Below, one piece after another: positions 1-6,858 of a DNA stretch of 6,858 bases. The position numbers and the translations under genes were made by a program. The stretch is from a virus (Duplodnaviria > Heunggongvirae > Uroviricota > Caudoviricetes), in the IMG/VR virus record IMGVR_UViG_2660238190_000001; one strand, given 5' to 3'. How positions within the stretch are numbered: the first letter of the stretch is position 1; each line of letters opens with the position of its first letter. The notes under the pieces were generated by a model that was not told where the DNA came from, searched no databases, and worked only from the letters and a program-made list of their open reading frames with translations.

Positions 1-451
1 ATTTCTCAGCCTGGGTCATTGAAGCCTGCCGTCGGAGACTAACGTCAGAAAAGAGAGCATATACATCAATCCAAAGTGATGATGGATGAACATCCCGGTT
101 TCTTCCACCATCGCACCGGAAAAGCGACTATGAGGGTAACCCTGCGTCTGTCAGCACAGTAAAACCCGGTGTGCATCGTTTTTGATTATTCCCGCACACT
201 CACGCAGAAGGAATTCCCCGTCGGGCTACGGTCATGGTTAATGCGGGAATACGGCGACGATACAGCGCAGCTAAAAGGGTAATAGACGGATAGACCGGTT
301 TATTTCATTCCACAGGATTCTGAGTGTCCCCAACTTCCTCCAATAGTCTGAGCGTACACCTATATAGTTTTAATTTTCATCAATCCATTTAACTATCGTT
401 TAATTGTTGTCACATAGGATTCTGCCGTTTTTAACAATGCAGGATAATAAG

Positions 452-745
452 ATGAAAAAAATGTTGTTTTCTGCCGCTCTGGCAATGCTTATTACAGGAT
501 GTGCTCAACAGACGTTTACTGTTGGAAACAAACCTACAGCAGTAACACCAAAGGAAACCATCACCCATCATTTCTTCGTTTCGGGAATTGGACAGGAGAA
601 AACTGTTGATGCAGCCAAAATTTGTGGCGGCGCAGAAAATGTTGTTAAAACAGAAACCCAGCAAACATTCGTAAATGGATTGCTCGGTTTTATTACTTTA
701 GGCATTTATACTCCGCTGGAAGCGCGTGTGTATTGCTCACAATAA
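452..745 (+). CDS. bor: Bor outer-membrane lipoprotein (lambda Bor / Iss family, serum-resistance moron), 97 aa
   Basis: Translation from ATG 452 (MKKMLFSAALAMLITGCAQQTF...RVYCSQ) matches lambda Bor over its full length as I remember it; signal peptide with lipobox LITGC; AGGA 7 nt upstream of ATG 452. The track ORF starting at 404 has a 16-aa extension without RBS support. Convergent with Rz, as in lambda. Confidence 0.9.
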   Translation: MKKMLFSAALAMLITGCAQQTFTVGNKPTAVTPKETITHHFFVSGIGQEKTVDAAKICGGAENVVKTETQQTFVNGLLGFITLGIYTPLEARVYCSQ

Positions 746-2519: not shown

Positions 2520-3617
2520 ATGAAAAAATTAACAGTGGCAATTTCTGCTGTAGCTGCATCAGTACTGATGGCGATGTCTGCTCAGGCAGCTGAAATTTAT
2601 AATAAAGACAGTAACAAGCTGGATCTGTACGGGAAAGTTAATGCTAAGCACTACTTCTCCTCTAATGATGCAGATGATGGTGATACTACTTATGCCCGTC
2701 TTGGCTTCAAAGGTGAAACCCAAATCAACGATCAACTGACTGGTTTCGGTCAGTGGGAATATGAATTCAAAGGCAACCGCGCTGAATCTCAAGGTTCCTC
2801 CAAAGATAAAACCCGTCTTGCCTTCGCTGGCCTGAAATTCGGTGACTACGGCTCCATCGATTACGGCCGTAACTACGGTGTAGCATACGACATCGGTGCG
2901 TGGACTGACGTTCTGCCAGAATTCGGTGGCGATACCTGGACCCAAACAGATGTGTTCATGACTGGTCGCACCACTGGTGTTGCAACCTATCGTAACAACG
3001 ACTTCTTTGGTCTGGTTGATGGTCTGAACTTTGCTGCTCAGTACCAAGGCAAAAACGATCGTAGCGATTTCGATAACTACACTGAAGGTAACGGTGATGG
3101 CTTCGGTTTCTCTGCTACCTATGAATACGAAGGATTCGGTATCGGTGCAACTTATGCGAAATCTGATCGTACCGACACTCAAGTTAATGCAGGGAAAGTT
3201 CTTCCTGAAGTATTTGCTTCCGGTAAAAATGCAGAAGTTTGGGCCGCAGGTCTGAAATATGACGCTAACAACATTTACCTGGCCACTACCTATTCTGAAA
3301 CCCAGAATATGACTGTATTTGCTGATCACTTCGTTGCTAATAAAGCTCAAAACTTCGAAGCTGTTGCACAATATCAGTTCGATTTCGGTCTGCGTCCGTC
3401 CGTTGCTTACCTGCAATCTAAAGGTAAGGATCTTGGAGTATGGGGCGATCAGGACTTAGTCAAATATGTTGATGTAGGTGCAACCTATTACTTCAACAAA
3501 AATATGTCTACTTTCGTTGATTACAAAATCAACCTGCTTGACAAAAATGACTTCACTAAAGCACTCGGTGTAAGCACTGATGACATCGTTGCTGTAGGTC
3601 TGGTTTACCAGTTCTAA
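2520..3617 (+). CDS. nmpC: Outer-membrane general porin NmpC / Lc (OmpC/OmpF/PhoE family), intact, 365 aa
   Basis: Signal peptide [23 protein letters not shown]|AEIYNK, C-terminal beta-barrel signature ...GLVYQF, porin-typical Gly/Tyr/Asp-rich strands; matches the prophage-encoded NmpC/Lc porin by recollection. No IS interruption in this window. Confidence 0.93.
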
Positions 3618-5225: not shown

Positions 5226-5680
5226 TACGCCTCCTGCTTATCGCGCAGCAGCTGGAACTCGCAGCTCGGCGGAATAGTCAGGTGGCAGCCAATATTCATC
5301 GCCCAGGCTTCAACATTACACAGGAAGACATACATCTCTCCGGTATCAAGATCGGAGGTATGGCGTAACGACTGGATAGTGGTGATATCACCGGTTACGA
5401 CATCAACCAGGTCTTTGGTTTCATAACCGAGATATGTGTGTTTGAGAGCATCTTTTACCCAAGCTGGAGTGGCGAACGTTTTACCCCTGCTGATGAGGTA
5501 TTCACTGATTTCGCTGTACCACATGTGGCTGAGTGCATTCTGGGAAAGACTGCGTCTCTCGCGCCACGGTTTAAGCACCATGCGAAAGCATTTTCCGTCC
5601 TCCAGATAAGGCTGGATCTGCTGGCCGATAGCGGTGAAGTTGCCGCGATGTAATTTGATGCCGTCTTGTGGGAGGTTCAC
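5225..5680 (-). CDS. ybcN: YbcN-like nin-region protein (DLP12 YbcN; reported DNA base-flipping protein), 151 aa, GTG start
   Basis: Track [18 protein letters not shown]...LLRDKQEA; start codon at 5680 is GTG with GGAGGT 5 nt upstream; identity from recalled similarity to K-12 YbcN and from synteny with ninE-ybcO-rusA. Confidence 0.78.
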
Positions 5681-5778
5681 GCTTCACCTCCGCAGAGGTC
5701 AAACTCAGGATACAAAAAATCGCAGGTGCATTTCTGCATCTGTGAAGGGAGAAGAGAGTTTGGATTGTATGTGCGCAT
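5677..5778 (-). CDS. ylcH: Small ORF, 33 aa, YlcH-like (below ORF-track cut-off; found by hand translation)
   Basis: Minus-strand ATG at 5778 gives [33 protein letters not shown], stop TGA at 5679-5677 overlapping the ybcN GTG start (GTGA). Length and position match K-12 ylcH as I recall; no independent coding evidence. Confidence 0.45.
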
Positions 5779-5870
5779 AAACGTCCCCGTTTAGCGCAGA
5801 AGTCACCGGAGTTGTTCAAGCTCCGATGACTTTATTATTACGAATTGATTTTACAAAATCAAAAGGTATG

Positions 5871-6323
5871 TTAGTGACGCGGGTCTGTTATTATGCGAGA
5901 AGGGTTTCCGTATAAAACAAGGACCTTACTTCCTTGAGTAAATAACGGATCTTTGCCTTGAACAATGGTCATTAAATTCCCATTCTCAGTTTCGACAACA
6001 TATTCCATGCCTGTTTGTTTTGTTGCTGAAGATTCGATTGCTGCCCCGGCAATACCACCAATGACTGCACCACCAACGGCACCAACGATATTAGAACGAA
6101 CTCCCCCACCAAGCGCAGAACCAGCGGTTGCCCCCACGGCAGCCCCAGCAGTCCCGCCTAACGCGGAAGTCCCACTGATATCAACCCCCCTGGCACTAAT
6201 AACTGTACCAGCGATAGTTCGATTAACCATGCCCACAGAGCCAACAGAATAACTATTTGGCGATATATTTTGTGCGCATCCAACCAACACTAAGAGTGGA
6301 GCAATTACGAATAATCGCTTCAT
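5871..6323 (-). CDS. SlyB/Pcp-like outer-membrane lipoprotein with glycine-zipper region, 150 aa
   Basis: Signal peptide with lipobox LVGC (MKRLFVIAPLLVLVGCAQN), central Gly/Ala zipper (GGTAGAAVGATAGSALGGGVRSNIVGAVGGAVIGGIAGAA), C-terminal segment GMEYVVETENGNLMTIVQGK...SKVLVL resembling the SlyB C-terminus (GVELEIRKDDGNTIMVVQKQ...QRVVL) as I recall it. ATG overlaps the stop of the upstream ORF (ATGA). Confidence 0.75.
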   Translation of the reverse strand: MKRLFVIAPLLVLVGCAQNISPNSYSVGSVGMVNRTIAGTVISARGVDISGTSALGGTAGAAVGATAGSALGGGVRSNIVGAVGGAVIGGIAGAAIESSATKQTGMEYVVETENGNLMTIVQGKDPLFTQGSKVLVLYGNPSRIITDPRH

Positions 6324-6664
6324 TTAGCTACCCTAACAGGAAACATTGGACGAGAAAGATCAACACTTTCTAATGCTTGCAAGAACTGCGTTATGTTGTT
6401 TTGCACCGCGCGATTAACAGATTCGCGTGCTCGAACAATACCGTAGAATGCGTAACTGGCTGGAACAGTACCGGTAGACTCAATATCCTGCGTATATATA
6501 ATATCACCATTCGCACGGTTGATTATTTCATACCTTGCAATTGCTTTAGTTGTCATTGAAACACCAAAAGCAGGAACGTCAAGAGCCAACACTTTAACAT
6601 TTAAGCTAACCGTATTTGGTGAACTATCACGAAAAATAGTCATTCGGTCGAGTGCTTCCTGCAA
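6320..6664 (-). CDS. Unknown protein, either intact (about 107 aa from ATG 6643) or a 5'-truncated remnant of a longer gene interrupted by IS1
   Basis: Track ORF begins at a TTG (6664) only 17 bp from the IS1 end; the first ATG is at 6643 with AGGAAG 11 nt upstream. The frame stays open upstream through the IS1 boundary to a stop at 6772-6770 with no start codon in between. No signal peptide or recognisable family in what remains; translationally coupled to the downstream lipoprotein. Confidence 0.5.
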   Translation of the reverse strand: MQEALDRMTIFRDSSPNTVSLNVKVLALDVPAFGVSMTTKAIARYEIINRANGDIIYTQDIESTGTVPASYAFYGIVRARESVNRAVQNNITQFLQALESVDLSRPMFPVRVAK

Positions 6665-6681
6665 AGATTCACGCCAAATTG

Positions 6682-6858
6682 GGTGGTGCTGCCAACTTAC
6701 TGATTTAGTGTATGATGGTGTTTTTGAGGTGCTCCAGTGGCTTCTGTTTCTATCAGCTGTCCCTCCTGTTCAGCTACTGACGGGGTGGTGCGTAACGGCA
6801 AAAGCACTGCCGGACATCAGCGCTATCTCTGCTCTCACTGCCGTAAAACATGGCAACT
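6682..6858 (+). mobile_element. IS1 insertion sequence, left end (IRL plus start of insA); continues beyond the window
   Basis: GGTGGTGCTGCCAACTTACTGATTTAGTGTATGATGGTGTTTTTGAGGTGCTCCAGTGGCTTCTGTTTCTATCAGCTGTCCCTCC... matches the canonical IS1 left end almost base for base as I remember it (IRL GGTGATGCTGCCAACTTACTGAT with one mismatch). Confidence 0.9.
6737..6858 (+). CDS. insA: IS1 InsA (transposition repressor / N-terminal part of InsAB' transposase), partial, 3' end outside the window
   Basis: GTG start at 6737 gives [39 protein letters not shown]..., the zinc-finger N-terminus of IS1 InsA. Confidence 0.88.

Follow-up and report, generated by a model that had tools for sequence, protein, structure and literature searches.

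Among described proteins, the closest to the one at the centre of this study is SlyB of Escherichia coli (b1641), a PhoPQ-induced lipoprotein. As described in a recent preprint (bioRxiv 10.64898/2026.06.08.730324, citing Janssens et al., Nature 2024), SlyB forms stress-induced oligomers that encapsulate outer-membrane proteins in lipid nanodomains, and mutating its residues I65, V69 and F73 abolishes the binding of outer-leaflet phospholipids. Host SlyB and host YajG both co-purified with LptDE in one pull-down study (PMC12065857). Outer-membrane protection by SlyB through lipid nanodomains has been shown only recently. We analysed a stretch of 6,858 nucleotides (nt) from a virus of the class Caudoviricetes (IMG/VR record IMGVR_UViG_2660238190_000001; one strand, 5' to 3'), hereafter referred to as the window. 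It represents the nin-to-lysis segment of a lambda-like prophage and contains a gene for a SlyB-like lipoprotein of 150 amino acids (aa), which we name S, directly behind the remnant of a gene for a second lipoprotein of 186 aa, which we name Y. There is good support for Y-S being a mobile cassette of two genes for outer-membrane lipoproteins, which the lambda-like prophage carries as an accessory element, or 'moron'; the copy in the window is probably defective.

In its setting, the pair resembles Bor/Iss, Lom, Cor, Llp and the plasmid protein TraT, which are likewise encoded by outer-membrane accessory genes in otherwise syntenic mobile backbones and are expressed in the carrier cell, as we predict for Y-S. 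The Cor and Llp lipoproteins act on FhuA, and TraT, an outer-membrane ring with alpha-helical membrane segments, hinders conjugation physically. No sequence relation connects Y-S with any of these proteins, and the pair differs from them in having two components and a host range that extends over proteobacterial classes.

By sequence comparison, S is a full-length paralogue of E. coli SlyB. A profile of 42 S homologues matched SlyB in the PDB (7ojf/7ojg) end to end, over residues 2-150, with an E value of 3.7e-15; hhalign of S against SlyB of E. coli K-12 returned a probability of 98.7% (E 4e-16, 148 columns), and BLASTP 33% identity (E 7e-13). An AlphaFold 2 model of S, with a predicted local distance difference test (pLDDT) value of 70, contains helices at residues 55-71 and 75-101 followed by C-terminal strands, and its sole significant Foldseek match in the PDB is SlyB13-BamA (7ojf; E 2.5e-8, template-modelling score 0.52-0.55). 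The protein opens with the lipoprotein signal MKRLFVIAPLLVLVGC, in which the lipobox LVGC ends in Cys16 (MKRLFVIAPLLVLVG-C16-AQN). All 42 aligned sequences share this cysteine, and position +2 lacks a residue for inner-membrane retention. The centre of the protein is rich in Gly and Ala. An N-terminal strand, a glycine-zipper helical hairpin at about residues 55-101 and a C-terminal beta domain complete the architecture, so that S and SlyB are alike in length and in layout from the lipobox to the C-terminal PR. The two differ in their genomic setting, since slyB adjoins slyA and has no partner gene, whereas S resides on prophages and islands and is preceded by Y. They probably also differ in regulation: SlyB is PhoPQ-induced, whereas no PhoP box was found upstream of Y-S. 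In the plaque-forming phage PhiR30_1 (PV340558), the region upstream of Y yielded no PhoP-box match with fewer than two mismatches, and matches with two mismatches occurred at chance level; PhoP control of Y-S was accordingly rejected.

An earlier reading made from the letters of the window alone (the sequence-only reading) had proposed a 150-aa lipoprotein of the SlyB type, with a Gly/Ala-rich zipper and a SlyB-like C-terminus, and the open reading frame (ORF), its signal, the hhalign alignment and the structural match all bear this out. Its expectation of a database hit to glycine-zipper or SlyB families was right with regard to SlyB, which the profile search recovered, but the Pfam glycine-zipper models stay below their gathering scores for S (PF05433, 21.1 versus 24.2 bits; PF13488, 16.9 versus 25). 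Many close homologues of S carry precomputed PF13488 or PF05433 hits. In the phage protein catalogue, S falls into PHROG 13877, of unknown function.

Intact Y is a gene of 561 bp (186 aa, WP_000720581.1; positions 8621-9181 of locus L001). It begins with MKKIILLAMIIGSLTGC, a lipoprotein signal, and the lipidated cysteine, Cys17, is followed by a highly conserved tether, PPLNFSVPNVG. Beyond the signal peptide, Y has no sequence match in Pfam, NCBIfam or the PDB; it belongs to PHROG 12521, also of unknown function, and an exhaustive search for its family gathered 973 cluster representatives. The sources name it variously 'UDP-N-acetylglucosamine acyltransferase' (many records), 'lipoprotein' or 'hypothetical protein', with 'YajG family lipoprotein' given in a single recent PGAP record, and labels for the pair also include '17 kDa surface antigen'. 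By structure comparison, Y has a fold of the LptE/PqiC/PelC type, the alpha/beta sandwich common to the solved members of this group, with fold-comparison values of 13.0 for XCC0632 (DUF330/PqiC-like), 10.6 for PelC, 10.0 for LptE, 9.5 for CsgG, 9.2 for PqiC and 7.3 each for LpoB and the TraT decamer. A search of a viral structure library returned weak CsgG-like and ERF-like matches only and was uninformative. Despite the likeness in fold to LptE, PqiC (DUF330, ABC_trans_aux), PelC and the N-domain of CsgG, Y belongs to none of these families by sequence, no MCE, Pel, Lpt or curli genes are found among its neighbours, and its tether sets it apart. An acyltransferase is ruled out by the fold, which is that of an alpha/beta lipoprotein and not the acyltransferase beta-helix.

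YajG (b0434, PF03923) required closer attention, being, like Y, an outer-membrane lipoprotein roughly 190 aa long, whose secondary-structure elements follow the same order as those of Y in a weak alignment. With signal peptides included, hhalign of Y against YajG gave probabilities of 74.7% and 91.8%. When only the mature regions were compared, with both alignments trimmed at the lipobox Cys, the probability fell to 0.5% (E 0.13), leaving no significant similarity, and YajG was rejected as an identity for Y, which accordingly stands as an unassigned family. In agreement, 0 of 79 diverse Y-family members match PF03923, whereas all listed true YajG relatives do; the NCBIfam YajG model PRK11627 matches residues 1-62 of Y only (E 0.17); and yajG adjoins ampG, unlike Y. 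Lipoprotein signal peptides alone suffice to produce hhalign probabilities of 75-92% between unrelated lipoprotein families, which drop below 1% after trimming at the lipobox Cys, and such similarity may be how the PGAP record came by the name 'YajG family'. The same artefact accounts for an apparent relationship between Y and S themselves: their alignment reaches 91% over the signal peptide alone and 0.2% once trimmed, and a common N-terminal motif (NFSVPNVG in Y, SYSVGSVG in S) proves non-significant in the trimmed comparison.

Y and S each have several hundred homologues with identities of 55-85%, which clearly makes both more than chance ORFs. They occur in Klebsiella, Serratia, Edaphovirga, Bordetella, Pusillimonas, Comamonas, Cupriavidus, Xanthomonas, Stenotrophomonas, Luteimonas and Azospirillum, as well as in Sphingomonadaceae and in genome bins of Chthoniobacteraceae; the pair is spread over alpha-, beta- and gamma-proteobacteria, with 60-70% identity kept across classes. 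Among loci retrieved with Y as a probe, 68 of 74 genomic and 33 of 36 viral ones have S immediately behind Y in the same orientation, and the two genes share a 4-nt overlap in 51 genomic and 29 viral loci. The pairwise distances of Y and S are also correlated (r = 0.88; Mantel p = 0.001; 84 pairs), and we regard the two genes as an obligate pair. Probing with S recovered the same viral contigs and one more, which also carries Y, and apart from copies broken by IS1 no intact S of the pair clade was seen without Y. Neighbours beyond the pair are nearly all unique, and clustering of the genes around 90 loci revealed no conserved third gene. Among the 150 proteins flanking the pair most closely, 115 Pfam families are represented, none of them in more than 4 loci. 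The contexts of the pair include IS66, toxin-antitoxin genes and ordinary metabolic genes. Nonetheless, certain positions recur. The pair follows a gene for a cI-type repressor (HTH_3 plus Peptidase_S24), in the same orientation and at a distance of 43-122 nt, at 9 loci that come from different classes; at 4 further loci it is convergent with such a gene, and in 3 viral contigs (L108-110) it is placed between the tape-measure and minor tail genes. In 72,556 plasmid records, no Y was found save for one partial hit at 29% identity. Within E. coli, intact Y and S are present in 279 of 5426 complete genomes and in PhiR30_1, invariably between ren and ninB. In the searchable literature, we found no publication on the Y-S pair or its function.

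Some loci depart from the common arrangement. A decayed cassette (L073, 5555-5884) encodes an S of 109 aa without the whole glycine-zipper hairpin, and in Oxalobacter (L085, 5121-5734) fragments of Y and S adjoin an intact S-like gene on the opposite strand. In Photorhabdus caribbeanensis (L055, 5916-7263), a solo Y without S lies about 360 nt upstream of an array of clustered regularly interspaced short palindromic repeats (CRISPR) with at least 23 repeats, and L058 is similar. The 28-nt repeat of the L055 array, GTTCACTGCCGTACAGGCAGCTTAGAAA, which recurs with a 60-nt period, is the type I-F repeat; no cas genes are present in the 5 kb upstream of the array.

The copy of the cassette in the window is interrupted. 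In a DNA alignment with intact relatives, the window is identical to them up to position 6682 and unrelated beyond. When positions 5700-6858 were compared by megablast with the 5426 complete E. coli genomes, the matches in 279 genomes always ended at query base 983, which corresponds to the same position 6682. The rest of the window, 6683-6858, is multi-copy DNA with matches at thousands of E. coli sites, on chromosomes and plasmids alike (median of 10 places per genome); its terminal sequence, GGTGGTGCTGCCAACTTACTGATTTAGTG, we take to be the left-end inverted repeat of IS1. The junction between IS1 and Y is absent from all of these complete genomes, though several of them match the adjoining phage DNA at 100% identity; the window may derive from an IS1-rich strain, possibly Shigella, that is not among them. 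Only codons 67-186 of Y are left, and hmmsearch aligns the window ORF to positions 66-184 of the Y profile only. Read back into IS1, the Y frame meets a stop, and the first possible start is a TTG at 6664, giving a 114-aa ORF. Because only these codons remain, the remnant has neither signal peptide nor lipobox; lost to the insertion are the Y signal peptide, the lipobox Cys17, the conserved tether (PPLNFSxPNVG) and a promoter-like site, and no such site was found on the minus strand between IS1 and the start of S. Since IS1 destroyed Y and removed the promoter-like site, the cassette copy in the window is probably defective and inactive, and expression of S from it is doubtful. The overlap of the Y stop codon TGA with the S start codon ATG as ATGA persists (tcat at 6320-6323 on the plus strand).

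The sequence-only reading had noticed both this overlap, which is real, and IS1 upstream, while missing that the element cuts the Y gene. Consequently, what it took for a complete protein of 107-114 aa from a family that it could not recognise is instead the 3' two-thirds of a second lipoprotein gene, cut at 6682/6683, and the module that it described is broken in the window.

A second, independent IS1 insertion in Y, at about codon 148, is found in another viral contig (L123/L137; IMGVR_UViG_2617270945_000004, about 1-605). There, the right end of IS1 faces Y-S, in the orientation opposite to that in the window, and S is again intact. That IS1 has struck Y more than once could be due to AT-rich target DNA or to selection against the gene.

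The position of the pair in the phage genome is best seen where the cassette is intact. In 4 E. coli chromosomes and in PhiR30_1, the order is O-P-ren, an AT-rich spacer of about 490 nt, Y-S, the ylcH-like ORF and ninB, whereas the same slot in the K-12 prophage DLP12 reads renD-emrE-ylcJ-ybcK-ybcL-ybcM-ylcH-ybcN, with ylcH as the counterpart of the ylcH-like ORF. The Y-S pair is thus alternative prophage cargo in a slot that is filled otherwise in DLP12, and such replacement between conserved backbone genes is characteristic of a moron. This agrees with the sequence-only reading, which placed the pair as prophage cargo in the stead of ybcL/ybcM upstream of ylcH, and comparison across related prophages, which it had suggested, shows that the pair is conserved and that full-length Y, the AT-rich spacer and ren lie upstream where IS1 is absent. 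Neither of the outcomes that would have refuted that reading was seen: no characterised operon is matched by either protein, and the locus belongs to prophages, not to ordinary chromosomal flank. The comparison that the reading made with DLP12 is correct as far as shared content goes, but the prophage is not DLP12 itself: in 2 of these chromosomes, the integrase adjoins ybhC, the lambda attachment site, and not the DLP12 site.

The GC content of the spacer and of the 5' part of Y is 32-40%, compared with about 50% in the flanks. Intact copies have a promoter-like GTGATA-16-TATAAT some 30 nt ahead of the start of Y, which is a consensus match only. Directly 3' of S there is no convincing terminator; a terminator-like hairpin with a T-run lies just downstream of the cargo slot, inside the ylcH-like ORF (window 5721-5738, minus strand). 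Phage 82 has a sequence with 85% identity to the first 66 bases 3' of S, for which its annotation lists promoter signals and a possible binding site for a regulator (X92588). Rfam identified no RNA family in the window. The features of the window, whose assignments are confirmed by the annotation of identical DNA in E. coli genomes, are collected in Table 1.

Table 1. Features of the 6,858-nt window and their positions.
Feature	Position	Strand	Remarks
bor/iss	404-745	+	window ORF and annotated identical DNA
Porin gene	2520-3617	+	intact, 365 aa, NmpC/Lc/OmpD type
ylcH-like ORF	5677..5778	-	33 codons; marks the downstream edge of the cargo slot; annotated as hypothetical protein at L001 7978-8079
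S	5871..6323	-	intact 150-aa lipoprotein gene; TAA stop at 5871-5873
Y remnant	6320..6682	-	last 120 codons and stop of the 186-aa lipoprotein gene
IS1 left end	6683..6858	+	runs off the window; its genes face away from the Y-S strand
Rz/Rz1, lysozyme, holin, Q, ylcG, rusA, ybcO, ninE, ybcN/ninB		-	window ORFs and annotated identical DNA

The same phages carry other envelope genes as well. The prophage porin gene is intact in the window, whereas the equivalent nmpC of DLP12 in K-12 is split by IS5. With Y, S, bor, lom and the genes for a porin and an omptin protease, the lambda-like PhiR30_1 (L003, L128) carries six accessory genes directed at the outer membrane, an unusually heavy burden of envelope-remodelling functions for a single phage. 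Its bor gene is preceded, at a distance of about 50 nt, by a perfect PhoP-box-like direct repeat, TGTTTAGGGTTTGTTTA (L003, 3585-3601), which has no match in the window, where the allele is of the iss type, even with one mismatch allowed.

As to what the intact pair does, we tentatively favour a lysogen-expressed module that remodels or stabilises the outer membrane on the basis of SlyB-type rings, with Y as a dedicated partner; we rate the chances of this explanation as a little short of even. As Asp is absent from position +2 in both, Y and S would go to the outer membrane. There S, as a homologue of SlyB, would insert its glycine-zipper hairpin in the membrane and form rings that enclose patches of lipid and outer-membrane protein. 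Y would be made in step with S and would nucleate, cap or target the S ring, a role that we propose because its fold is typical of ring-forming lipoproteins docking under outer-membrane assemblies (PelC, PqiC, LptE, CsgG and TraT). Expression would be from the prophage, where the pair occupies sites that commonly house cargo expressed in lysogens, rather than under PhoPQ stress control, and the outcome for the lysogen would be a remodelled or stabilised outer membrane, that is, lysogenic conversion alongside the bor/iss, porin, lom and omptin cargo. A generic envelope function is favoured because identity is high across classes and because the same phages carry these other envelope genes. The level at which identity is kept across proteobacterial classes also argues for a host-independent target, which may be membrane lipids or the pair itself and not one species-specific receptor.

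Several observations weigh against this explanation. The residues of SlyB that bind phospholipids, I65, V69 and F73, align to T58, A62 and T66 of S, and the corresponding columns of the S family contain T/A/G/S, mostly A, and V/T/A, respectively, that is, small residues; because the phospholipid-binding residues are not kept, S may not build the same lipid nanodomain as SlyB. The model of S is of moderate confidence, as its pLDDT value indicates. Promoter-like sites upstream of Y show no enrichment over shuffled sequence and are at chance level for the region. Formation of a Y-S complex is inferred from gene linkage, co-divergence and fold type only, and the co-divergence of Y and S is confounded by shared ancestry, which contributes to the correlation of their distances. 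Moreover, Y occurs without S in about six lineages and hence has some role of its own, and the position behind cI fits exclusion or defence genes equally well.

This last point leads to the alternative of superinfection exclusion or envelope-level anti-phage defence, in which the pair, expressed by the lysogen, would sequester or cover receptors or block the passage of DNA through the outer membrane, much as Cor and Llp act on FhuA or as TraT obstructs conjugation. The several loci behind cI are as such an explanation would have them, and TraT offers a precedent, being an alpha-helical outer-membrane ring that excludes by physical interference (PMC12658005). Nevertheless, PADLOC defence models match neither Y nor S (0 families), both PHROG families are of unknown function, and the pair is often found in non-phage chromosomal contexts. 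Known exclusion lipoproteins are, in addition, tied to one receptor and one phage group, whereas the pair retains its identity across alpha-, beta- and gamma-proteobacteria. We regard exclusion as a serious contender, albeit an unlikely one. Far less can be said for the notion that these are ordinary known genes, in which case Y would be orthologous to YajG or else an acyltransferase, S would simply be slyB of the host, and the locus would be chromosomal flank. The names in the sources and the hhalign probabilities obtained with signal peptides would suggest it, yet the similarity to YajG vanishes without them, the Pfam YajG model matches none of the 79 Y-family members, the fold of Y is not that of an acyltransferase, S is only 33% identical to a host SlyB that is encoded elsewhere, beside slyA, and the locus lies inside prophages; this reading deserves hardly any credence.

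The gene order and the 4-nt overlap resemble those of antitoxin-toxin operons, which raises the possibility of a toxin/antidote pair of lipoproteins akin to entericidin A/B or to effector-immunity pairs, S perturbing membranes and the coupled upstream Y neutralising it. It would be in keeping with this that Y stands alone in several lineages, like an orphan immunity gene, while intact S lacks Y only in the IS1-broken copies, and that toxin-antitoxin genes and insertion sequences occur nearby in some genomes. However, S is a full-length homologue of a structural scaffold protein and not of a known toxin, both products are outer-membrane lipoproteins, and neither is linked to a delivery system. 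What makes a toxin highly improbable is that two independent IS1 events destroyed Y and left S intact, which would be lethal with a live toxin unless S was silent. A role in the lytic cycle would have the pair transcribed from pR with the nin genes and conditioning the outer membrane, for example by holding the envelope until lysis. The place of the pair in the rightward early operon of E. coli phages, between ren and ninB, and within the tail gene module of L108-110 would accord with it, but holin, lysozyme and Rz/Rz1 already make up a full lysis cassette, many copies lie outside prophages or behind cI, and the insert is AT-rich and brings a promoter-like site of its own, which points to independent expression; we consider such a role slightly more improbable still than a toxin.

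A bolder reading is conceivable, in which proteobacterial prophages and islands spread a self-contained two-lipoprotein device, a SlyB-type ring nucleated or capped by a partner with the LptE fold, that permanently walls off outer-membrane proteins of the lysogen. We regard this as speculative and distinctly unlikely; if true, it would constitute a new form of envelope-level superinfection exclusion or of resistance to envelope attack, acting by compartmentalising the outer membrane and not by binding a single receptor.

The interest of the window locus itself is lowered by these results, given that its copy is broken by IS1 and probably non-functional. For the databases, they entail two corrections: Y is not a UDP-N-acetylglucosamine acyltransferase, and the label 'YajG family' appears to be based on signal-peptide similarity. 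Beyond the window, an uncharacterised, widely mobile cassette of a SlyB-type lipoprotein and its partner is a family-level finding. It defines a distinct clade of SlyB that always travels with a dedicated second lipoprotein, has been moved between classes by phages and islands, and is stationed directly behind the repressor gene in several phage lineages. The pair is a tractable candidate for a new lysogenic-conversion or exclusion function, for which PhiR30_1 represents a ready experimental system.

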